From positions 12,639 to 76,638 of the forward strand of contig JAJYBV010000001.1 in assembly GCA_021778805.1 (NCBI GenBank): a stretch of DNA of 64,000 nucleotides, read 5' to 3'. Below the pieces are notes generated by a model. That model was given only the letters and a program-made list of their open reading frames with translations, did no database searches and was not told where the DNA came from. Below are positions 975-62,766 of this stretch, in pieces (positions within the stretch are counted from its first letter, which is position 1; each line of letters opens with the position of its first letter). The position numbers were made by a program, and so were the translations under genes. Source of the stretch: Chloroflexota bacterium (lineage in GTDB: Bacteria; Chloroflexota; Ktedonobacteria; Ktedonobacterales; JACDGC01).

Positions 975-1210
975 TGAGTTATGTAATTATCCATAGTGAT
1001 AACGGCCAAACAATTAAAGGTGAAATTGATGAACTTCCCTCTCAAGGGCAAGTATTTATCCGTATTAGAAATCCAATGCAAGTAAGTGAAAGAAACTTGG
1101 ATTGGATCGACCAGCATATGCGTGAACTGTATATTCAAATTGCGCATATTACTTTTCTGGAAATCCTTTCGGATAGAAACCACAATAGAATCCCAAGATA
1201 TCCCGAGTAA
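974..1210 (+). CDS. Small hypothetical protein (78 aa), translationally coupled to the FHA gene
   Basis: Internal ATG of ORF 929..1210, overlapping the FHA stop by 1 nt. Sequence starts MSYVIIHSDNGQTIKGEIDELPSQGQVFIRIRNP.... I recognise no family. Confidence 0.4.
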   Translation: MSYVIIHSDNGQTIKGEIDELPSQGQVFIRIRNPMQVSERNLDWIDQHMRELYIQIAHITFLEILSDRNHNRIPRYPE

Positions 1211-1237
1211 TTGCTGCTCAGATATACCTGCGTAACC

Positions 1238-1390
1238 CAGGGGTACCGCGCGGTGTGTTGTTTATAATATGATATTTTGGGGACACCCCAAACCCCGCGC
1301 AAGGGGCTTCCGCCCCTTACGTATCCCTGGTTTGTGTAGCCGTGAAGTAGTTGGAATAGCCATTGCTGTCCTTATATTCTGAATAGTTAC
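1238..1390. repeat. Repeat locus I: inverted copy of the ~89-bp module-A unit (1238-1328) plus module G ending CTGAATAGTTAC (1337-1390)
   Basis: 1275-1328 is the reverse complement of the gggatacgtaaggggcgg..gccccttgcgcggggtttggggtgtccccaaaa element seen at 2389-2632. The ggaatagcc...agttac part recurs at 17262-17315 and at 36880-36935 (inverted). Confidence 0.85.
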
Positions 1391-1495
1391 AAACGGCGCA
1401 AACAAAAAGTTAATTATAATTGAAGATTACCTTGCCTCTGTGCTATTATTGAAAAGCAAACATGAAACAATAATACAATATTCAGGAGGAAGGTC

Positions 1496-2338
1496 ATGGA
1501 TTTACAATTATTGATTATTTTGGGCTTAGCAGCTTTTATTGTAATTTATTTGCTGTTTTCCGGCTTTCGCGTTATCAATCAATACGAACGCGCTGTTGTA
1601 TTCGTATTAGGGCGTTATGCCGGTGTTCGCGGCCCGGGACTTTTTTATATTATTCCGTTCATCAGCAAAATTCGAGTCGTAGATCTGCGAATTTTATCGT
1701 TGGAAGTGCCTGCGCAAGAGGTCATTACTCGCGATAATGTTACCATTAAAGTAAACGCAGTGCTATATTTTCGGGTAGTGGAACCTAATAAATCGATTAT
1801 TAATATTTTGGACTATCAAAGAGCAACGGTGCAAATTGCGCAAACTACACTGCGCAATGTTTTAGGCCAATCGGAATTAGATGAAATTTTAAGCGAACGC
1901 GAAGTTATTAACGGCCGTCTGCAACAAATCATTGATCAGCATACCGAACCTTGGGGCGTAAAAGTATCGGCCGTTGAATTAAAAGATCTTGAACTGCCCA
2001 TCGGAATGCAGCGCGCTATGGCTAAACAAGCTGAAGCAGAACGCGAAAAACGCGCCAAAATTATTGCCGCCGAAGGAGAGTTTCAGGCTTCGCGGCAATT
2101 AGCTGAAGCAGCAAATGTAATTTCACAGCAGCCGGCAGCTATTCAGCTGCGTTATATGCAAACATTGGTGGAAATTGCTGTTGAGAAAAATTCCACCATC
2201 ATTTTCCCTGTCCCTATCGATTTGCTTTCTTCTCTCAAAGATATTGCTCAGCAATTGCAATCCGGCTCTGCTTCCACCAACCAGCCGCCGCCGGCAGCGC
2301 CGCAAAACCCGCCCAATGCTCCAACTTCGCAGCAATAA
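1496..2338 (+). CDS. SPFH/band-7 (stomatin/HflKC-like, slipin) membrane protein
   Basis: N-terminal TM helix, then the core [33 protein letters not shown] coiled-coil [17 protein letters not shown] and a Pro/Gln-rich tail follow. RBS aggagga at 1484-1490. Confidence 0.85.
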
Positions 2339-2361
2339 TGTTAATGAACTTTAATTATTAA

Positions 2362-2945
2362 AGAGGGACAAGATATACCAGCATAACCGGGGATTCATAA
2401 GGGCGGTAGCCCCTTGCGCGGGGTTTGGGGTGTCCCCAAAAGCTCTTTTTTATAAACAACCACCGCACGGCACACATGGGGATACGTAAGGGGCGGTAGC
2501 CCCTTGCGCGGGGTTTGGGGTGTCCCCAAAAGCTCTTTTTTATAAACAACCACCGCACGGTACACATGGGGATTCATAAGGGCGGTAGCCCCTTGCGCGG
2601 GGGATTGGGGTGTCCCCAAAAGCTCTTTTATTTTAAAATTTCCCCAAAGAAATATTGGTGGCTAGTCAGCAAGGGCGACCGCAAGGGTCGCCCCTACCGG
2701 ATTGCATTGCCTCAGGTGTACCGTGCAGTATTTGTTCAACAACAGGCACTATAAAGCACTCAATGTACTCTGCTCTGTTGATCTTCATCCCGATTAAAAT
2801 ATCAAAGCCCATAATTGTGTGGCTTGTTTCCCCACCTCCACCCATGGGTACCGCGCGGTGGTTGTTCAACAACAGGCACGATGGGGTACTCAATGTACTC
2901 TGCTCTGTTGATCTTCATCCTGATGAAAATATCAAAGACCATCAA
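2362..2945 (+). repeat. Repeat locus II: composite array (left boundary GGGACAAGATATA, 2.7 x 89-90-bp module A, module B hairpin, two ~130-bp right-end units)
   Basis: Module-A units start at 2389, 2478 and 2568. Module B is at 2655-2728. ttgttcaacaacaggcac...actcaatgtactctgctctgttgatcttcatcc.gat.aaaatatcaaag.ccat occurs at 2732-2812 and 2862-2942. Confidence 0.9.
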
Positions 2946-2946
2946 C

Positions 2947-2979
2947 AAAAAAACAGGGGGGAATGTACATTCCCCCCTG
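2947..2979 (-). terminator. Rho-independent terminator of the DoxX gene
   Basis: caggggggaat-gtac-attcccccctg (2954-2979), with an A7 run on the plus strand (2947-2953), which is a U-tract in minus sense. Confidence 0.8.
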
Positions 2980-3020
2980 CGCTGATAGAAATCGCTTTCT
3001 TTTAAACGTTAGTTAAATCG

Positions 3021-3641
3021 TTAAGCGGCTTTAGCGTGTTCCTCTTTTTTCGCCAAAGAACCTGTCCACGGAACACCTAAAAGCGGCAGCAAATAGCGGT
3101 CTCCACCCCAATATCCGGCAGTTCTCCAAGCCAGCAGAAGGAAGAGCGCCAAGAAACCAAGTACCGGATTTGTGCTAACTGCGCCGGCCAGCACATAGTT
3201 GAAATTCATCATTAAGCCAAAGAATGAAGCGATACCGGTAAGCACACCAAAGATTAAACCTAACCCAACCAATAATTCACCGAAGGTGATTAAGTATGCC
3301 CACAAACCGGCATAAGGAACCACAAAATCTTTTAAGAATGAAGCATACCACCCTTGTACGGTAGGATATGGGCCATTTGCTTTGGCGATTGCGCCTTGGG
3401 CAAATCCCTTAATCGCGGCGCCAACGTTACTGGTCATAATCCAGCTTTTTTCAGGCGATTCCAGCGGCAACGCTGCGCCGGTCAATTTGGCAAATCCGGC
3501 TCCCAGCCATTGATATCCAACATATAAACGCACAATAAGCCATAACCATGCCATTCGTGTATCCGCAAAAAAGAAGCGGGCGATTGGAGCTTCAGGAATT
3601 TCAGAAGCTGCTTTGGGCTGTAATTTAGCGAATATGCTCAT
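3021..3641 (-). CDS. DoxX-family integral membrane protein
   Basis: 206 aa with several hydrophobic helices. The motif LWLIVRLYVGYQWLGAGFAKL is typical of DoxX/DoxD. Confidence 0.55.
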   Translation of the reverse strand: MSIFAKLQPKAASEIPEAPIARFFFADTRMAWLWLIVRLYVGYQWLGAGFAKLTGAALPLESPEKSWIMTSNVGAAIKGFAQGAIAKANGPYPTVQGWYASFLKDFVVPYAGLWAYLITFGELLVGLGLIFGVLTGIASFFGLMMNFNYVLAGAVSTNPVLGFLALFLLLAWRTAGYWGGDRYLLPLLGVPWTGSLAKKEEHAKAA

Positions 3642-3959
3642 AAATCATTTCTCCTCAAGAAAACTGATTGGTAAATTTGCGCCGCTTTGTGTGGCGCCTT
3701 CAGTTTTTCTTGACACTTCAATAATATGATGAAAAACTCAAAAATAAATCTCAAAATACCTCCTATCTCTCACGAATACATCAATGTTTTTTTCTGTTTT
3801 AGTTGGCTGAATCATATTTCCGTCACGATAAACGCTTTTATTTTCTGTTTGCTTTTAAGCCTCTGCCGGTCCGTGGCCGGCAATGAATTTGACGCAATTG
3901 CTCGCCACAAAAAAACGCCGCCGAAATTATCGGCGGCGCTAGAATACAATGAAAAATTG

Positions 3960-11546: not shown

Positions 11547-11562
11547 TGCCTTAAACAAACGT

Positions 11563-11596
11563 ATTCCCGCTGCGGCGCGCGGCGGGAATTTTTTTT
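11563..11596 (+). terminator. Rho-independent terminator after the receiver gene
   Basis: The stem attcccgc (11563-11570) pairs with gcgggaat (11582-11589) and is followed by a T-run to 11596. Confidence 0.75.
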
Positions 11597-11711
11597 GCTC
11601 TACACCATACATTACCTGCCGGAAAAATCGGTTTTTTTTATTGGCGCAGATATGTTCGGCATAGAAAACGCAGCACAAACTGCATAGTTCTAATGGTATT
11701 TCCTATTTAAA

Positions 11712-12521
11712 CAGGGACAAGATATATTTCGTAATCAGGGATACGTAAGGGGCGGATGCCCCTTACGCGGGGTTTGGGGTGTCCCCAAAATCTCTTTTAT
11801 GAAAATCTTTCACAGGGCAATATTGATTGCCGAGTGGCAAGGGCGACCGCAAGGGTCGCCCCTACCGGATTGCATGGCTTCATGTGTGACAGCGCGGCGT
11901 ATGCTCTAAAACAAACGATATGTGGCGGCGCTTGGGCTTCGGAGCGATGTAGTCGCCAAGGTGGCCACAAAACGAACACCACACGATGATGAACTTTCAT
12001 TATTAAAGAGGGACAAGATATATTTCGTAATCAGGGATACGTAAGGGGCGGATGCCCATTACGCGGGGTTTGGGGTGTCCCCAAAATATTTTTTTTATTT
12101 TTCCGATGGGAAATATTGGTAGCCGAGCAGCAAGGGCGACCGCAAGGGTCGCCCCTACCGGATTGCATTGCCTCAATGTGTACCGTGCAGTGTATGCTCT
12201 AAAACAAACGATATGTGGCGGCGCTTGTGCTTCGGAGCGATGTAGTCGCCAAGGTAGCCCCAAAACGAACACCACACGATGAATCGTGTGGCTTGTTTCC
12301 CCACCTCCACCCATGGGTACCGTGCGGTGATTGTTCAATAACAGGAACTATGGGATACTCAATGTACTCTGCTCTGTTGGTCTTCATCCTGATGAAAATA
12401 TCAAAGACCATAAACATGAGGAGTTCGTTTTTGTGGTCGCCCTTGCCGCCATCCAGCCACTTGCTTGGCGCCGTTTCTCCGGCGTTATGCGGACATTGTC
12501 AAAACTCACCTGAGTAGTTAC
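11712..12521 (+). repeat. Repeat locus III: ~296-bp composite unit duplicated in tandem, the second copy extended to right-end modules and the CTGAGTAGTTAC terminus
   Basis: gggacaagatatatttcgtaatcagggatacgtaagggg starts at 11714 and 12010. Modules A, B and C follow in the same order in both copies. The E module is at 12331-12412 and the terminus at 12510-12521. Confidence 0.9.
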
Positions 12522-12604
12522 ATGCAGCTTAAGATCTTGCTATATTGCTATTTAACGCGCTACCATGTGAATAATACAATCTGTGAAAGCTGGATAAACA
12601 AAAT

Positions 12605-16697: not shown

Positions 16698-16830
16698 TGC
16701 TGGTCTCCTCCTTTCTGACTGATGATGTTCGTTTTCGGAACAATGTTCCCCAATATGACAGCGCAAAAAAATACCCCTGCGCACAGCGCAAGGGCAGATT
16801 ATATATTTAGAATCGTTCCGCATAGAGTGC
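16698..16830 (-). promoter_or_regulatory. Candidate rplJ (L10) leader with a terminator-like attenuator hairpin
   Basis: In minus sense, cccttgcgc-tgt-gcgcagggg (16774-16794) is followed by a T7 run (16765-16771), about 70 nt upstream of the rplJ ATG. A second hairpin, aatcgtccgca...tgcggaacgatt, lies upstream. L10 leaders are known autoregulatory elements, but I cannot confirm homology by eye. Confidence 0.3.
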
Positions 16831-17009
16831 GGACGATTTATGTACATAAACAAACTGCGCCTCGACAGGCAACTCCATGTCATTAAGCTGATAACAGCGC
16901 CTGTGGTCACTGGCATATATTCCGCATTTAGTATATGGCCCAGCGGATATGTTTGTCAAATTTCTGTACAGAAGGTTGCTATTCAGAGGATATTTACAAG
17001 AGCCGCAAA

Positions 17010-17315
17010 GAGGGACAAGATATATTTGCGTATCCCCAAGTTTCGTGGCGCTTTTGCTCCGGCGCGGAATTATTGGTCGTGCGGCCATAAAACGAACACC
17101 ACACGATAAATCATGTGGCTTGTTTCCCCATTTTCACCACCCGAGTTGCCATGGGTAATACTTTAACTTCGGGTAAATTGCAATAAAATCTCAAAATCCG
17201 CGCCGGAACATTGAGGTCATGCAATATTTTTAATAAAATGTATCTGGCAGGCGCCACAATCCCTGCGTAGTGGTTGGAATAGCCGCGAATGGCTGTACCA
17301 ACCACGAGTAGTTAC
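17010..17315 (+). repeat. Repeat locus IV: short variant (left boundary GGGACAAGATATA, module C hairpin, module G, terminus GAGTAGTTAC)
   Basis: gggacaagatata at 17012. aaaacgaacaccacacgataaatcatgtggcttgtttcccca at 17088-17130. gtggttggaatagccgcgaatggctgtaccaaccacgagtagttac at 17269-17315. Confidence 0.85.
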
Positions 17316-36583: not shown

Positions 36584-36790
36584 GCATGTTACCTGCCGTT
36601 TTATTCGAATAAATGGGAATCTCCCATGTATATCATAGGGCAACGCTGAAAATCATGGCAAATAATGCATGGAGTGCAAGAACGAGTTGTTGCTAGATTG
36701 GAATATTGCTTAAAATAGCGTTTACGGCAACTACCGGAGCCATATAAGAGTTAAAGTATATAGGACTTGAGCATAGAAAGCAGAAGGCGC

Positions 36791-36857
36791 GGAGGCGGCA
36801 TGCCTCCTGACGAAGCCAGAGGTGTCCCCAGATACTGTTTATTCCTTTCCAGTCTCA
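36791..36857. repeat. T-family element copy 2
   Basis: ggaggcggcatgcctcctgacgaagccagaggtgtccccagatactgtttattcctttccagtctcag. It contains the ggaggc/gcctcc hairpin and a GGTGTCCCC core related to module A. Confidence 0.7.
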
Positions 36858-36879
36858 GATTTCTAGTATAAGCAAAATT

Positions 36880-37153
36880 GTAACTACTCAGAAGATAAAG
36901 CCAGGAATGGCTATTCTAACGACAGCGCAGCTGCAACAATCTGAGATTCGTAAGGGGCGGCGCCTGCCCACTGCGCGGGGATTGGGGTATCCCTAAATAC
37001 CTATTTTATATCCAAAGGAACCCTGCACGGTACACCTGAGGCCATGCAATCCGGTAGGGGCGACCCTTGCGGTCGCCCTTGCTGCTTGACTATCAATCCC
37101 GCGCTGTATCTTTTGCTTTATGGAGACCTTGTCAAAATCCCCTGAGTAGTTAT
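36880..37153. mobile_element. MITE-like non-autonomous element (~274 bp) bounded by 11/12-bp terminal inverted repeats
   Basis: The left end is gtaactactcag (36880-36891) and the right end is ctgagtagttat (37142-37153), an inverted match at 11 of 12 positions. The interior holds module G (inverted), a degenerate module A (36944-36998) and module B (inverted, 37023-37085). It has no coding capacity. Confidence 0.55.
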
Positions 37154-45499: not shown

Positions 45500-47167
45500 C
45501 TATTCGGCTATTGGCCCGCCTAAATGGCCATGGCCGCTTGAATCAACCGGCGTGGGATTTGGATCTTCACCGCTTGTAGATCCGGTAGATGAGCCGACTC
45601 CGCCGCTCGGTGTATTATTTCCCGATGAGCCGACTCCGCCCCCAGGAGTGTTATCTCCCGATGAGCCAACTCCGCCCCCAGGACCGTTTTCCGATCCGGC
45701 GCCATTACCTACTGAAACAGCCGGAGGCAAATCACTCGGTGGCAGCGCAATTGCCCTATCTGTATGCAAAGATGAAATATCTTTCCACACTTCGTGATTA
45801 AGGCTTGGTGTTTGCGCTGTTGCTTCAGCAGTGGTTAACAATGGACGGGTGTCTTCGATGATATTGTGAGGATTGGCTGTAAAAATATTTTCCTCTGCCG
45901 TATGTGATGCGCTGGAAACTATATTTGCTGCGGCAGCTTCCACATGCGGCGCAGAACTTGCCGGAACGGCTTCGGGTTTATCCGCCGGTTGCGGCGCTTG
46001 CGGCTCTTCAGCCGGTACATGCGCGGCAGCTTCCTGATGCGCCGCAACTTCAGCCGTCACCGCGGATCCTGCTCCAATGATCGCTGTTGCCTCTGCGGCG
46101 CGCTGCAAATCAGATGAAGGATTTTCCGCCGCAGTTTTTTCAGCGCCGCCATATACTTGGTCTACAGTTGCGCTGGTAAACAAACCAGATTCCGCAGCGG
46201 TTTCGGGTTTATCCGCTGGTTGCGGCGCTTGCGGCTCTTCAGCCGGTACATGCGCGGCAGCTTCCTGATGCGCATCAACCTCAGCCGTCATCGCGGCTCC
46301 CGCGCCAATCATTGCTGCTGATTCTGCGGCGCGCTGCAAGTCAGATGAAGGATTTTTCGCCGCAGTTTCTTCAGCGCCGCCATATATTTGGTCTACAGTT
46401 GCGCTGGTAAATAAACCAGATTCCGCAGTGACTTCAGGTTTATCCGCTGAATTTTCTGATTCCGGCATGGCGGCCGGCGTATGAAGCACATCTGAATCCT
46501 GAGTTTGCACAGCAGAAACCGAAGCTATATTTTCCATCGTCAAGGGTTCGTCGTCTTCATAAAACACTAATACGCCTTCATCTCCTTGCTCTGGAGTTTC
46601 AATGAAATCGGCCGTATTACTTTCTGCCGCTGCAGTTTCAAGCGCCACTTCATCAGTAGATTCGGTGGGCGCAGGAGTTGATTGTGGTGTCAACTCTGCT
46701 GTGGATTCATTTGCAGGCATATCGGTTGTATGCACCGGCAATTCAATTAAATTGGGATTAACCGCCGAACTATCAAATGCTTCATTAGCCATAGCCGCTG
46801 CAGCTGCAATATCGGCAGCAGTAATCACACCTTGTTCAGCAGGTGGGGGTTCATGCTGCAATGTGTTAATAATTCGCTGCGCAATGGCCTCATTTTTCTC
46901 CAAAACCAGGTTATGCAAATCACCGCTTATAAGTTCATATAAAGCATAAAATGTTGGAATAAAAGTCCAGCTAAACAGAACACTCAGTATGCCATATTCA
47001 AAATTTCCCAGATAAAACTGCTGTAAGCCGAATGTGCCCAGCAAAGGCAGTGACAATATACGCGCGGTAGTTTCATTCTTTTTTTGCCGAACATACCGGC
47101 TATGAAATTCATTTTTTTGGTCGAAATTCAAAGAAAATAGCATAGACTCTATAGAATCTTCTATCAT
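45500..47167 (-). CDS. TM2-domain membrane protein with a long low-complexity, internally repeated C-terminal region
   Basis: The N-terminal part, ILSLPLLGTFGLQQFYLGNFEYGILSVLFSWTFIP, is TM2-like. It is followed by an Ala/Glu/Pro-rich region with two 77-aa repeats and a Gly/Ser-rich 12-aa x3 tail. Confidence 0.65.
   Translation of the reverse strand: MIEDSIESMLFSLNFDQKNEFHSRYVRQKKNETTARILSLPLLGTFGLQQFYLGNFEYGILSVLFSWTFIPTFYALYELISGDLHNLVLEKNEAIAQRIINTLQHEPPPAEQGVITAADIAAAAAMANEAFDSSAVNPNLIELPVHTTDMPANESTAELTPQSTPAPTESTDEVALETAAAESNTADFIETPEQGDEGVLVFYEDDEPLTMENIASVSAVQTQDSDVLHTPAAMPESENSADKPEVTAESGLFTSATVDQIYGGAEETAAKNPSSDLQRAAESAAMIGAGAAMTAEVDAHQEAAAHVPAEEPQAPQPADKPETAAESGLFTSATVDQVYGGAEKTAAENPSSDLQRAAEATAIIGAGSAVTAEVAAHQEAAAHVPAEEPQAPQPADKPEAVPASSAPHVEAAAANIVSSASHTAEENIFTANPHNIIEDTRPLLTTAEATAQTPSLNHEVWKDISSLHTDRAIALPPSDLPPAVSVGNGAGSENGPGGGVGSSGDNTPGGGVGSSGNNTPSGGVGSSTGSTSGEDPNPTPVDSSGHGHLGGPIAE
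45588..45695. repeat. Intragenic 36-bp x3 tandem repeat (encodes GGVGSSG(D/N)NTP(G/S))
   Basis: gatgagccgactc starts at 45588 and 45624, with the variant gatgagccaactc at 45660. Confidence 0.85.
45973..46434. repeat. Intragenic 231-bp x2 tandem repeat (77 aa units)
   Basis: cgggtttatccgc recurs at 45973 and 46204, and a third partial start (caggtttatccgc) is at 46435. The units are roughly 85-90% identical by eye. Confidence 0.9.
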
Positions 47168-47339
47168 AGCGCTGTAACCTCCTTCAAGTTTGTTGTTTTA
47201 TTAAAAATTACCAAATCTACAATAGCATGGATTGAGGAAAGCCGCAACAACATAGCAGTGTTATCTATGCACTATTGTACTTTTCAAAGCGCCATTTTCT
47301 TGTTCATACGGCTGCATGCAATTCAGCGCACAAACAAGT

Positions 47340-47366
47340 TAACGTTTTTGCGGCGCCTGCCGATAT
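47340..47366 (+). promoter_or_regulatory. Sigma28-type promoter match upstream of the LysM-SLT gene
   Basis: TAAc (47340-47343), N15, GCCGATAt (47359-47366). It is about 70 nt upstream of the ATG at 47438. Confidence 0.45.
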
Positions 47367-47437
47367 ATAGTATAAAGCATATCATTTTGAAGAGCAAATG
47401 CTTTATTGTGTTTTATCATAAGGGAGTAGCAGATATT

Positions 47438-48328
47438 ATGTTACCAATGCATCTACTGTGGGATATATTGCGCCGCAAAACTATACCATTAGCGCTTTTT
47501 GCCGCAATTTGCAGCAGCGGATTAGCATATTCCGCTTATTCGGCGCTGCAATCGGCGGCAAGTTGCCCCACATACACCATACACGCCGGTGACACATTAA
47601 ATAATATTGCGAACCGCTATCACACCACATCAAATTATCTGGCGCAGTTAAACCATATCCGCAATATTAATATCATATTTATAGGCCAAACTATTTGTGT
47701 CGGCGCGCCATATATTGGTTCAGCTCCGGCGCCGCAGCCAAGTCAAGGCGTATGTTTAGTGGGCATAACGGTTGTTCGCGGAGAAACATTATTTCAACTG
47801 GCGCAGCAATACCACACATCGGTATCATATTTAGCGCAAATTAATAATTTGCGCAACATCAACACAATTTATGTGGGTGAGTGGCTGTGCATGGCGCGTT
47901 CTGGAGGATATTCATCTGTATATGGCGATTTACAGTGGGCTACTCAGCCGCAAGTTCGCCAAACATTGCTGGCTGCCGCAGATCGCAACGGGCTGCCGCG
48001 CAATTTAGTATTGGCAATAGCTTGGGCGGAAAGCAATTGGACCCAACATGTTATTTCGTGGGATGGTGGAATCGGCGCAATGCAACTGATGCCATATACT
48101 GCAAATTGGCTGAACAATGCAATGCACACCAATTATAATCCCTACTATCTTTATGACAATGTACAGTTAGGCACTTCATATTTGCGTTTTTTATGGAATA
48201 CATTTAACGGAAATTTAACCGATATTATCAGCGCTTATAATGAAGGCGCTTATAATGTAAAAACACGCGGCATATTTAATTGGTTCTATGTCAATCGGGT
48301 AGAAAACTATATCCGGCTATTTTCCTAA
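47438..48328 (+). CDS. Secreted 2x LysM + lytic transglycosylase (SLT) protein
   Basis: Signal/anchor sequence, two LysM repeats (YTIHAGDTLNNIANRY..., VVRGETLFQLAQQY...) and an SLT core, LAIAWAESNW...GAMQLMP. RBS aagggag. The ORF track start at 47258 is an extension. Confidence 0.8.
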   Translation: MLPMHLLWDILRRKTIPLALFAAICSSGLAYSAYSALQSAASCPTYTIHAGDTLNNIANRYHTTSNYLAQLNHIRNINIIFIGQTICVGAPYIGSAPAPQPSQGVCLVGITVVRGETLFQLAQQYHTSVSYLAQINNLRNINTIYVGEWLCMARSGGYSSVYGDLQWATQPQVRQTLLAAADRNGLPRNLVLAIAWAESNWTQHVISWDGGIGAMQLMPYTANWLNNAMHTNYNPYYLYDNVQLGTSYLRFLWNTFNGNLTDIISAYNEGAYNVKTRGIFNWFYVNRVENYIRLFS

Positions 48329-48340
48329 TCAATAGCAATA

Positions 48341-48434
48341 GTCGCACTACCGGATTGCGTACCGCGCCGGCAAAACCTCAAGGGATTCGTAAGGGGCAGC
48401 AGCCCCTTGCGCGGGGCTTGGGGTGTCCCCAAAA
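48341..48434 (+). repeat. Repeat locus VI: module-B fragment plus module A downstream of the LysM-SLT gene
   Basis: gtcgcactaccggattgcgtaccgcgc (48341-48367), then gggattcgtaaggggcagcagccccttgcgcggggcttggggtgtccccaaaa (48382-48434). Confidence 0.85.
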
Positions 48435-48538
48435 TATCTTTTATTAAAAAAACTCCGCGCGTCTGCAAAAGCAGCATGATAGCAGCAATATGATACAATT
48501 GGGTTGAAAGCATATTACGCAAAGGAGCGATTTTACAT

Positions 48539-55023: not shown

Positions 55024-55106
55024 AGGAGGCGCAAAAAGCAGCATGCCTTCTGACGGGGCGGGGATGTCCCCCGATTCCTTTTATTCCTTGTTTAGGCTGA
55101 GGTCTC
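55024..55106. repeat. T-family element copy 3, downstream of rluD
   Basis: aggaggcgcaaaaagcagcatgccttctgacggggcggggatgtcccccgattccttttattccttgtttaggctgaggtctc. Confidence 0.7.
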
Positions 55107-60390: not shown

Positions 60391-62766
60391 ATGAAAAATA
60401 CTCACTTTATCAATAAGTTTCTCGATTCCATTCAAAAATCTGCTATTCGGCAGCTTGCCAAAGTAAAAAGGAATAGAAATACAACGCCATCGGTTCAACC
60501 GGATGCGCCACAGCATCCATCTACGGCGAAATCCAACCGGAAACCGTTTTCCTTTAAACTGCCGCAGTTTGCTTTTAAGTTTCCTGCTAAAAAATCTCCG
60601 GCCGAATTATCCAGCGCGCCATCGGTTCAACCGGATGCGCCGCTGCATTCACCGGCGCCAAAACCCAACCGGAAGCCGTTTTCCCTTAAATTGCCGCAGT
60701 TTGCTTTTAAATTTCCTACTAAAAAACCATCAACGAAATTATCCAGCGCGCCATCGGTTCAACCGGATGCGCCATTGCATTCACCGACGCCAAAACCCAA
60801 CCGGCAGAAATTTTCGCTGAAACTGCCTCGGTTATCTTTTAATATCCGCGCTAAAAATACAAGTCCAAGCCCGATATGGCGTTTACTAGCACAATTTTTA
60901 ACAAAAGCTGGCGCAGTAATTACATTTCTAGCTAAAAAAACGCATCTTTCCAATGTATCTGTACGCAATACATCCATCAGGCTGCGGTCTTTTGCTCCGA
61001 TAGTCATCAGCCTTATTTTAACCATAATAATCAGTGGATACAGCATGTGGGGATTTAACGGCATGAACAGCAATGTTCAGTTAATTGAACGGCAATCATT
61101 AACAGGCACAAAGTTAAGTTTTCAATTAGAACAAGGTTTATCGCAAACCTTTCTGGATCTCGGATCTACAATTTTAGCCACAGACCCCACCCAGATATCC
61201 GGCGATATTTTACTGCTACAAAATGATCTCACCATTACTAATCAATATTTGCAGCAGTTTACCAAATTATCCTTCAACGCACTTGAAATTCAACAGCTTG
61301 GGGCCTTTACCATCCTATATAGTCAATGGACCCAAACCATACAAAGCGTTATACAAATATTGCAATGTACGACAACTTGCAATATCAGTAATATGCTGCC
61401 CGGATCGATTAATGGTTCACTAAAAACACTGCGTACCGCAGATATCTCAGTTCACGCCCAGCTTGAAGCAGAACTTACTTCATTTTTATCATCGTCATAT
61501 ACTTCGGCGTTAACGCCGCTAAACTCATTGCGCGCATCACAAAAGGTCCGCGCAAACAGCCTCAGCGCACAAACCAGCTCGCAGTTATTATGGGATAGAA
61601 TGTTCCTGATAACTTTATTTATTATCAGTATCGCGATAAACAGTGTTTTAGGAATTCTTTTAGCTAACAGTATTATCAACCCAATTAAGAAAATAACCGC
61701 AGAACTCAATGTTGCCGCCACAGGTGATTTAACCCATGCTGATTCATTACAAAAAACATTTATTGACAAAAATGAGATTGGAACGTTAGCAGCGCAGCTC
61801 AGTTTCTTCTTAACATCAATGAATGTATTGCTGTTGGAAATTTTGAAAGCAGGAAAACAAATTCGAATCTCAACCAAAGAGATTTATCTGATGTCCGAAC
61901 AAAACGACATAGCAATCGCCAGCGTAGACCAAACTATTCAGCAGGTTGCAATTGGCGCTATAGAACAATCCAACCATTTACAGCACACCGTTTCAATGGT
62001 AGATTCTTTATTTCAGCAAAGCAATACGCTGCAATTGTACTCTACCGAAACCGCGGCGATTATGGCAAATATTAAATCGCGGATTATACATTCAACAGAA
62101 ATTATTCAGCAACTTGGTAACCGTTCACAAAAAATTACCGGCATTATCGCAACGATAGACGAAATAGCAGACCAAACAAGTTTGCTCGCGCTAAACGCTG
62201 CAATAGAAGCTGCCCGCGCAGGAAAACATGGTAATGGCTTCGCGGTTGTCGCTGATGAAGTGCGGAAACTCGCTGTAAAATCTGGTATATCCACCCAAAA
62301 AATTGAAGATTTAATTCGTGAAATACAGCAAGAAACGCAAGGCGCAATTGTTGCAATTCAAGAAAATGCGCAAAAAATTGATACAGCCATTGAAAAAATC
62401 GCCCAAAATGGCGATTATATTACCGTTATTCAAGGCAGCGCACACCAAGTAAATAATAAATTGCTCGGCGTATCGCAAATTAATGACCTTAATAAAAAAT
62501 CGTCACAGCAAGTTTCCGGGGCATCCCACAGCATGGCTCAGCAGTCGCAATATGTTATCGAGTCCATCAAAGCATTTGAACAAATAGCGGAAGAATTTGA
62601 GAAAATTATCGAACAATTCCATATCATTGGCGCTGAGCAAAAATTATCCGACAATGAAATGGTAAATCTCGATAGCGCAAACGTTGCCGCAACAGAAGAA
62701 ACAGAAAGAAACGCTGAAATAGTTACTATCGAAGAAAACAGCCCATTCAACGAAAACGCTGCCTAG
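60391..62766 (+). CDS. Methyl-accepting chemotaxis protein paralog with a repeat-containing cytoplasmic N-terminal extension
   Basis: [41 protein letters not shown]. It has the same sensor/HAMP layout as the upstream MCP. I prefer the start at 60391 (RBS aaaggtga); the ORF is open from 60322. Confidence 0.9.
60487..60882. repeat. Intragenic 132-bp x3 tandem repeat (44-aa units PSVQPDAP(Q/L)H..(K)PNRKPFS(F/L)[12 protein letters not shown]...LSSA)
   Basis: ccatcggttcaaccggatgcgcc recurs at 60487, 60619 and 60751. The third unit diverges in its second half. Confidence 0.9.

Follow-up and report, generated by a model that had tools for sequence, protein, structure and literature searches.

What fills the 682 bp between a gene for an SPFH/Band_7 protein and a convergent gene for a DoxX-like membrane protein (SPFH stop codon at 2338, DoxX stop codon at 3021 on the minus strand) is the question raised by this locus, which lies in a 64-kb stretch of a Chloroflexota genome (contig JAJYBV010000001.1 of assembly GCA_021778805.1; the whole stretch is called the window here and positions refer to it). 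The spacer contains a tandem array that is real, is repeated elsewhere in the genome and is non-coding, and the core of its units is a conserved structure. Positions 2344-2947 are probably a stack of non-coding modules that belong to a dispersed, mosaic family of structured repeats which resembles repetitive extragenic palindromes (REPs), bacterial interspersed mosaic elements (BIMEs), BOX elements and miniature inverted-repeat transposable elements (MITEs), and whose core is shared across Chloroflexota.

The array is assembled from modules designated L, A, B, C and D. Tandem Repeats Finder (TRF) reports a period of 90 with 2.8 head-to-tail copies over 2389-2637 (93% matches, 2% indels, score 436), and a repeat search of the window places the starts of these A units at 2389, 2479 and 2568, as repeat family D2. 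Units in the window begin with GGGGAT(A/T)C(G/A)TAAGG and carry the motif GGGGTGTCCCC, which occurs seven times in the window against an expectation of 0.02, with three of the seven in the array (2427, 2517 and 2607). On the left, the boundary motif GGGACAAGATATA is found at 2365 as well as at 11714, 12010 and 17012, and five matches at no more than two mismatches compare with 1.1 expected. On the right, the two D units match each other at 2718-2812 and 2848-2942 (87% over 95 nt), with in-register spans of 2683-2817 and 2813-2947 that lie 130 nt apart. From within the intervening module B onward, 2667-2728 shares 98% identity with 37084-37023 (minus strand), and identity to 11822-11887 and 12115-12193 is 89-91%; 2569-2947 aligns colinearly with 12034-12416 (77% over 391 nt). 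The 90-bp unit has a tail, AACCACCGCACGGYACACATGGG, whose reverse complement opens module D (I11-I13). This tail includes the short palindrome ACCGYGCGGT, which is present at most module junctions. A CRISPR array is a different arrangement: here no spacers separate the 90-bp units, and the units are the dispersed repeat itself.

The array, the module-B hairpin and two right-end units of about 130 bp had already been recognised in an earlier, sequence-only reading of the locus, and all of its coordinates hold. That reading had also assigned a palindrome and a T-run to each unit; the motif is indeed present in all three, but it is an inverted repeat of GGGG and CCCC around a TGT loop and not a strict palindrome. 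The view that submodules had been amplified inside one element has to be given up in favour of a pile-up of modules from a family dispersed over about six loci of the window and across Chloroflexota. About ten copies of the core lie in the window, every one of them between open reading frames (ORFs), and modules L, A, B, C and D are combined differently at the six or so loci. Modules recombined across loci, together with an internal module in variable tandem number, are the hallmark of mosaics of the BIME or BOX type.

The core common to these copies consists of a covarying hairpin of 8-11 bp (hairpin 1), the segment C-GGGG-YTT and an invariant hairpin, TTGGGGTGTCCCCAA (hairpin 2), with T and A on its flanks and usually followed by a T-run. 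Across the family the layout reads GGGRNT, hairpin 1 (6-11 bp), C, GGGG, YTT, GGGG-TGT-CCCC and AAAA, and where the GC content of the genome does not exceed about 55%, a stretch of pyrimidines and a T-run usually come next, followed by a GC-rich hairpin such as CTCGCCGCC-GCAG-GGCGGCGAG. Modules A and B of the window can be read as the counterpart of this layout, as hairpin 1, hairpin 2, T-run and GC-rich hairpin stand in like order, and module B appears to be the equivalent of the third, GC-rich hairpin (hp3) of soil relatives, whose position it occupies.

With RNAalifold on a plain MAFFT alignment the stems did not line up and hairpin 1 went unrecognised; in its place a covariance model, R1, was built on a hand-annotated seed of 30 sequences, none of which came from the window. 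The model scored the array units at 61.3 bits (unit 1, E 5e-20), 60.1 bits (unit 2) and 50.3 bits (unit 3), four other clear window copies at 57-59 bits, and three diverged copies at 29.5, 28.4 and 13.8 bits; over 100 sources it returned 155 matches below E = 1e-5. These matches supplied the 121 distinct rows of the covariation alignment, in which 95.9% of cells form pairs; shuffled alignments reach 83.0% and slid partners 45-64%. Compensatory changes are seen in each of the eight pairs of hairpin 1 (225 cells in total), and the covariation score of 0.369, against 0.144, was reached by none of 500 shuffles, in an alignment that was fitted to R1 itself and is biased toward the structure to that extent. 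Hairpin 1 is a secure case of a real conserved structure because the effect is large and the stems of different copies are plainly different in sequence, for example CGTAAGGGGC/GCCCCTTGCG, GTTAAGGGC/GCCCTTAAC, GCAGAGGAC/GTCCTTTGC and CCAGGACGGGC/GCCCGTCCTGG.

In hairpin 2 no covariation occurs at any of the four G-C pairs, and its GGGG/CCCC pairs are near-invariant (116-119 of the 121 rows), an invariance that is partly built in, as copies were gathered by an exact match to the core. Variants of the core were recovered by the model search, among them GGGGATGTCCCC at 55024, GGGGCGTCCCC and GGGGAGTCCCC. The idea that the purine-rich 5' flank (GGRGT) pairs with the pyrimidines after AAAA to form a closing helix was rejected, its complementarity of 4.30 being matched by 4.29 when partners are swapped between sequences. 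No Rfam 15 family reached its gathering threshold for the motif in the window or in 14 motif-bearing loci, and a search of 1150-3100 at E up to 5 gave nothing meaningful.

Could some of this spacer still be a gene? One of the ORFs across 2358-3005 might be a real small gene, the only gene-like candidate being the minus-strand mini-ORF of the D unit (MVFDIFIRMKINRAEYIEYPIVPV...), whose frame opens with ATG and stays open in several copies. The frame, M(V/G)FDI(F/L)I(R/G)MK(I/T)NRAEYIE..., lies at 2805-2942(-), 2669-2812(-) and 12283-12411(-), and is also given as MVFDIFIRMK.... However, none of the five ORFs (2358..2567, 2395..2619, 2515..2754, 2655..3005 and 2666..2893) has a match at the Pfam threshold, and they overlap on both strands and track the periodicity of the repeat. 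The D frame returns four short proteins (79-121 aa) among 5.8 billion, with no full-length parent, and at least one copy (L197) has in-frame stop codons. A small gene is hardly credible on this evidence; the ORFs are translations of the repeats, as the sequence-only reading had proposed, and the array is non-coding as far as this can be tested. The mini-ORF was also considered as the remnant of a transposase N-terminus, which was rejected since all it has are the four short, repeat-derived proteins, two of them without a locatable contig.

The 150 ORFs beside relatives carry 163 Pfam families, none of them in more than 3 of the 150, and so show no tie to one gene family, be it as a leader, a riboswitch or a companion of a REP-associated tyrosine transposase (RAYT). 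The upstream ORF is co-oriented with the motif in 31 cases against 14, and for the downstream ORF the two orientations are about equally frequent (23 against 21). As neighbours are diverse and the orientation follows the upstream and not the downstream gene, the motif is no leader or riboswitch of a regulon.

The sequence-only reading had also suggested that the number of copies could vary between strains and that closely related genomes should be compared; when this was done, the unit number was seen to differ. Among contigs with an identical SPFH or DoxX protein, a 682-bp spacer is present in the window, ERZ27236897, ERZ27236853 and GCA_027399305.1, and a 592-bp spacer in ERZ27236847 and GCA_027399375.1. 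The short allele has exactly one 90-bp unit fewer (two against three), and its first unit is a hybrid that joins the head of unit 1 (TTCATAAGGGC) to the single-nucleotide variant of the tail of unit 2 (CATGGCAC). Two derived changes in hairpin 1, a G-to-A substitution and a lost G, are common to units 1 and 3 of the long allele, and unit 2 has the family consensus. For such an a-b-a pattern to arise, a block must have been duplicated at least once, and the short allele is most simply explained as a later deletion by unequal exchange. A sister locus further along the window (11699..12416) is variable as well: the D unit at 12283-12416 is single in the window and threefold in GCA_027399375.1, and GCA_027399295.1 differs from the window in its left flank and by one additional A unit.

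Polymorphism of the spacer length between strains is therefore strongly suggested, yet unproven, as iterative k-mer assemblers can carry over collapsed repeats. A mis-assembled dispersed repeat could in principle account for the tandem structure or for the change in copy number: contigs of several assemblies break inside these repeats, and the differing right or left flanks of the sister locus could be chimeric joins. Against this, the three-unit structure is identical in four independent short-read assemblies, that is, the window's and three more, and the two-unit structure recurs in two. In addition, diagnostic differences among the units make 141-mers that span head and tail allele-specific, and the hybrid unit of the short allele requires k-mers that the long allele does not contain. 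An assembly artefact is thus very improbable.

Beyond the window, the exact core 24-mer (GCGGGGNTTGGGGTGTCCCCAAAA) occurs in at least 67 genome contigs, the window's own genome not being among the matches listed. Most of the listed matches lie in one 68%-GC Chloroflexi metagenome-assembled genome (MAG), JACPQP01, and the others in MAGs labelled Chloroflexia, Dehalococcoidia, Ktedonobacteria or Chloroflexota. The core 22-mer is found in 109 metagenome contigs, mostly from soil and with 46-69% GC; about a dozen low-GC matches, a few of them from gut metagenomes, lack hairpin 1 and were set aside as chance or unrelated, and roughly 90-100 soil contigs carry the motif. There was no copy of the core in viral contigs and none of a window-type 32-mer in the JGI metagenomes, and a literature search with the core string produced unrelated papers only.

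The commonest form in soil relatives is a convergent inverted doublet of about 150-160 nt, in which hairpin 1, hairpin 2 and a T-rich segment are followed by a central GC hairpin and then by the A-rich segment, hairpin 2' and hairpin 1' of the opposite arm; it looks like a doublet of REPs forming a hairpin (REPIN) or a bidirectional terminator. In JACPQP01 the core is part of a 109-bp element with terminal inverted repeats of 17-18 nt (AGTAGGTCTCGGAAAGTT/AACTTTCTGATACCTACT) and the ends GTAGGT...ACCTAC. The 2-bp flanks of the copies compared mostly match (by inspection, untallied), and there are recurrent dimers, 198 bp and 193 bp long, that have the same internal junction. Direct arrays of the core occur in other contigs too: a soil contig of 64% GC has four copies with a period of 60 nt (L153, 945-1185), and another contig has copies with a period of 90 nt (L152, 1-149). 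Given these dimers and direct arrays, tandem multimerisation is a recurrent property of the family, and the array between SPFH and DoxX is one instance of it.

To which of the known repeat systems does the family belong? It falls among dispersed, structured intergenic repeats, and membership in REPIN, MITE, BIME or BOX cannot be claimed, because the window copies carry no GTAG tag, no RAYT gene was seen, no target duplication or autonomous partner was found for the window type, and no sequence relationship to described families is apparent. As with REPs, which carry a conserved GTAG (or CGTC) tetranucleotide at one end (PMC3733652), the copies are short, numerous, extragenic imperfect palindromes, but the present unit, with about 65 nt and two hairpins, is larger than a classical REP. 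The BIMEs of E. coli and its relatives (PMC2817692 and general knowledge) are similar in being extragenic and hairpin-forming, in recombining a few modules per locus, in amplifying internal units in tandem to a number that varies by locus and strain, and in their frequent position between convergent genes or at 3' ends. They differ in being built from a 20-40-nt palindrome instead of a double hairpin of about 65 nt; the window copies lack the GTAG tag, the array units are direct and not alternating, the core spans classes of a phylum, and no sequence relationship is apparent. The BOX elements of Streptococcus pneumoniae (boxA-boxB(n)-boxC; general knowledge) share the order of a left module, a middle module in variable number and a right module, and are likewise non-coding, dispersed and predicted to fold stably, but they belong to another phylum and have another sequence; in the present family amplification extends to the right module, and a terminator-like hairpin with a T-run is part of the middle one. 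Homology to E. coli REP or pneumococcal BOX modules is unlikely in view of the different phylum. The Correia elements and MITEs of Neisseria, which have regulatory side-effects (PMC3184786 and general knowledge), are small, non-autonomous, have inverted termini, lie at gene ends and can supply terminators, and the 109-bp form of JACPQP01 resembles them with its terminal inverted repeats and short flank duplications; the present family, in contrast, has no known autonomous partner, and neither clear terminal inverted repeats of the whole composite nor target duplications were established in the window genome.

REPINs (PMC3116915, PMC3337134) deserve separate consideration. The soil relatives are like them in forming inverted doublets around a spacer hairpin and in being numerous, intergenic and conserved in structure; unlike them, no RAYT gene was present in the sequences examined, the window array consists of direct repeats, and one relative has 2-bp flank duplications. 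If the family were a system of this type, its hairpins, as single-stranded DNA, would be recognised by a RAYT-like HUH tyrosine transposase whose single-copy gene lies elsewhere in each genome, the invariant hairpin 2 would be the protein-binding site, and the tandem and inverted arrangements would be products of the enzyme. The usual doublet of soil relatives, at its length of about 150-160 nt, and the GTAGGT...ACCTAC ends of the JACPQP01 element would suit such a system, GTAG-tagged repeats have been reported in Chloroflexi (PMC3733652), and conserved stem structure combined with one sequence-invariant hairpin fits protein recognition better than termination alone. However, the window units have no GTAG or CGTC tag, no Y1 transposase is found among the window ORFs and none is enriched among the 150 ORFs beside relatives, and most JACPQP01 copies have 2-bp direct duplications. 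Such duplications are typical of DDE and not of HUH transposition, and a REP family is usually confined to one species or genus and not shared across a phylum. A literature search for REPINs or RAYTs in Chloroflexota found nothing that links them. A RAYT-driven system is accordingly rather improbable, and the family is apparently an undescribed motif, the array itself reflecting ordinary repeat dynamics.

The dispersed-repeat explanation has three inferred parts. The array would have grown and shrunk by unequal homologous recombination or slippage between 90-bp units, as indicated by the derived mutations common to units 1 and 3 and by the hybrid nature of the two-unit allele. Slippage or nested insertion had been the earlier suggestion; the hybrid unit fits slippage but fits unequal homologous recombination equally well, and the two are inseparable here. 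The family as a whole would spread as a small non-autonomous element, which in JACPQP01 takes the form of a clear 109-bp MITE. Finally, the repeat probably acts as a transcription stop signal, termination being the most economical function to be proposed for it. All three units are terminator-like in a consensus scan, with the stem TTTGGGGTGTCCCCAAA followed by AGCTCTTTTT, and 1100-3800 contains 10 terminator-like sites against 3.6 +/- 2.0 in shuffles. The array lies on the same strand as SPFH and 3' of its stop codon, and so in sense orientation. When the GGGG/CUCU extension is formed, the stem abuts U5-6; otherwise a gap of 5-6 nt separates it from the U-run. On the plus strand, each unit would thus be an intrinsic terminator for SPFH (stem GGGGUUUGGGG-UGU-CCCCAAA..CUCU, then U5-6), giving three SPFH stop signals in series which face a separate, strong terminator of the convergent DoxX gene.

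Several observations weigh against this explanation. With respect to mobility, the window genome has no established target-site duplication or empty site, and clear terminal inverted repeats of the whole composite were not established; the ends of L and D share GATAT(A)TTTC..ATCAGG in inverted form, a likeness judged by eye. No transposase occurs among the approximately 50 window ORFs or among the 25 most frequent families of the 150 ORFs beside relatives. In the fetched loci, no pair of JACPQP01 ends 0.5-5 kb apart encloses a transposase as a full-length insertion sequence would, and a candidate for an autonomous insertion sequence in L058 was dismissed as a chance match inside a gene. With respect to variation, the allele difference comes from short-read metagenome assemblies, in which MEGAHIT-style iterative k-mer assembly could in principle propagate a collapsed repeat. 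With respect to structure, unit 2 has a predicted fold of -34.5 kcal/mol (z -2.2), and units 1 and 3, with their damaged hairpin 1, fold no better than shuffles (unit 1 z +0.3). With respect to termination, the U-run begins 5-6 nt past the GC core unless the weak GGGG/CUCU extension forms, the T-run is present in only 44 of 85 relatives and is replaced by other sequence in high-GC ones, several copies of the Dehalococcoidia type carry GGGCGGGTGGGTGGGA after the core, and at two loci of the window, 1262-1328 and 36942-37011, the copy is antisense to the genes on either side.

As only some relatives have the T-run, some copies are antisense and a gap may precede the U-run, termination cannot account for the invariant 22-nt core, and the strict conservation of hairpin 2 suggests a sequence-specific partner. 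This partner might act on RNA. The repeat would then be a sequence-specific RNA element, that is, a module of 3' untranslated regions or of small RNAs bound by a conserved protein or RNase and involved in stability, processing or factor-dependent termination, and the array would be a multimer of functional RNA and not merely selfish DNA. Such an element would explain a 22-nt core that stays the same in genomes of 45-69% GC beside a stem that covaries, and would agree with the orientation bias toward the upstream gene, the invariably intergenic position of the motif and the lack of an equivalent in Rfam. On the other hand, the invariance is in part a product of collecting copies by their exact core, the motif behaves as a MITE in one genome and has antisense copies in the window, and no partner protein was found for this candidate role. 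An RNA element is thus unlikely. It may tentatively be proposed, as a somewhat doubtful possibility, that the core C-GGGG-YTT-GGGGTGTCCCC-AAAA and its covarying hairpin are the recognition element of a dedicated partner conserved across Chloroflexota, which could be a RAYT-like or otherwise domesticated transposase or an RNA-binding or termination factor.

Table 1. Repeat modules and flanking genes of the SPFH-DoxX spacer, and other loci of the family in the window.
Feature	Position	Strand	Basis
Solitary A element of 90-97 nt, inverted relative to the array, upstream of SPFH	1236..1332	-	92 nt 84% complementary to 2479-2570 (I1)
SPFH/Band_7 gene, stop codon before the array	1496..2338	+	280-aa ORF; Pfam PF01145 Band_7 on identical protein in public contigs
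Module L (left boundary), GGGACAAGATATA at 2365-2377	2344..2388	+	Matches 11989-12033 and 11707-11737 (84%); also 17007-17032
A unit 1: weakened hairpin 1 (TTCATAAGGGC), hairpin 2 at 2424-2440, T-run at 2445-2450, tail CCACCGCACGGCACACATG	2389..2478	+	TRF; covariance model R1
A unit 2: family-consensus hairpin 1 (CGTAAGGGGC-GGTA-GCCCCTTGCG), hairpin 2 at 2514-2530, T-run	2479..2567	+	R1; fold; terminator scan
A unit 3, partial: derived head as in unit 1, hairpin 2 at 2605-2619, module B replaces the tail	2568..2637	+	TRF; R1
Module B, hairpin GGGCGACC-GCAAG-GGTCGCCC at 2673-2693	2638..2712	+	Matches to other module B copies
Right-end unit D, copy 1, beginning with short palindrome GTGTACCGTGCAG	2713..2812	+	87% to 2848-2942; 86% to 12317-12413
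Right-end unit D, copy 2, with 3' remnant of module C (GTGTGGCTTGTTTCCCCACCTCCACC), palindrome CCCATGGGTACCGCGCGGTG, end GATGAAAATATCAAAGACCAT	2813..2947	+	D3 family; 93% to 12282-12416
DoxX intrinsic-terminator-like hairpin, separate from the array	2953..2980	-	12-bp stem, 7 GC pairs, T-rich tail TTTTTTTGTTG
DoxX-like membrane protein gene, convergent with SPFH	3021..3641	-	206-aa ORF; PF07681 DoxX (weak)
Sister locus: (L-A-B-C) x2, then one D unit	11699..12416	+	TRF period 293, 2.0 copies, 89%; R1 11737-11803, 12033-12099
L + C modules, no A or B	17007..17138	+	Repeat search; sequence comparison
Degenerate A copies 36782-36845 and 36942-37011, inverted module B 37023-37097	36782..37107	+	R1 13.8 / 29.5 bits; blast
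Single A unit downstream of LysM/SLT gene (Pfam, 47258-48328)	48343..48461	+	R1 58.9 bits
Diverged A-type copy, 11 nt past the stop codon of a pseudouridine synthase gene	55024..55087	+	R1 28.4 bits, E 3.5e-8

Some of the loci in Table 1 have peculiarities of their own. The solitary element upstream of SPFH matches R1 at 1262-1328(-) with 57.4 bits, and its repeat locus extends over 1236-1392. Its predicted fold (z = -4.4) brings the termini CCAGGGAUAC/GGUACCCCUGG together as a paired stem; for the solitary unit 1236-1332 the pairing termini are also written CCAGGGATAC/GTACCCCTGG. Together with the second array unit this element brackets the SPFH gene (1496-2338), the two inverted A stretches of 92 nt, 1236-1327 and 2479-2570, lying 1151 nt apart with both heads pointing toward the gene. 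The bracketing could be due to chance, or it could mark a repeat-flanked cassette or an insulated transcription unit.

At the sister locus, L-A-B-C is duplicated in tandem as a 293-bp unit (11707-12282, 89% identity), with the junction within the CACACGATGA/ATCGTGTGG hairpin of module C. Two assemblies run into different genes after the first 293-bp unit, and in three contigs from other assemblies of the species, compared with window positions 11547-12604 (L188, L196 and L197), a response-regulator or peptidase S51 gene is joined via the repeats to other neighbours, namely DUF2079/ABC transporter genes, NTP_transferase/Oxidored_q3 genes or a gene of 385 aa. These differing joins are either rearrangements at the repeats or chimeric contigs. 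The L + C fragment at 17007 lies about 75 nt beyond a ribosomal protein L10 leader (16759-16931(-), RF00557, 49.2 bits) upstream of the L10/L12 genes. Near the repeat clusters a 12-mer, CTGAGTAGTTAC, is found at 1379, 12510, 17304, 36880(-) and 37142; at no more than two mismatches it occurs 7 times where 1.5 would be expected, 5 of these occurrences lie next to elements, and an element end, a target or a promoter piece are candidate roles.

Among the relatives, seven high-GC copies of the Dehalococcoidia type (L032, L035, L093, L126, L138, L144 and L166) have a G-rich block, GGGCGGGTGGGTGGGA(T/C), about 10-20 nt downstream and no T-run; with its four G-tracts the block looks able to form a G-quadruplex. 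A 45%-GC contig, L078 (Ga0233433_10022344), contains several copies of another repeat (GGGGAGACCCCAAACCCCC...) beside a tRNA-like sequence, which is apparently a separate family that has the theme of a GGGG-N3-CCCC hairpin in common.

The genes of the window (45.3% G+C) are those of an ordinary chromosome, with FHA, Band_7, DoxX, DUF4012, CHAT, RadC, L10/L12, isocitrate lyase, malate synthase and a chemotaxis cluster among others. Tandem repeats are also present within coding sequence, where they are in frame: periods of 36 bp (45588-45683) and 231 bp (45967-46449) in a 555-aa TM2-domain ORF (45500-47167, minus), and a period of 132 bp with 2.7 copies (60485-60842) in an 814-aa methyl-accepting chemotaxis protein ORF.

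For the annotation of this genome, the finding means that about 600 bp filled by five overlapping predicted ORFs are repeat DNA. The same family explains several other long gene-free spacers in the window as well as contig breaks in metagenomes of this lineage, and at the sister locus the repeats coincide with a changed gene neighbourhood. Tandem loci that vary among co-occurring strains could serve as strain markers. The point of interest, however, is the unusually wide taxonomic spread of the family: a core that is supported by covariation, is absent from Rfam and occurs in several Chloroflexota classes and many soil metagenomes is a candidate for a new curated family. The stopping and processing of transcripts is little studied in Chloroflexota, and should a dedicated partner of the core exist, the family would represent either a REPIN-like system that spans the phylum and is so far undescribed or a 3'-end signal specific to the phylum, of which arrays such as the one between SPFH and DoxX would be the multimerised form.

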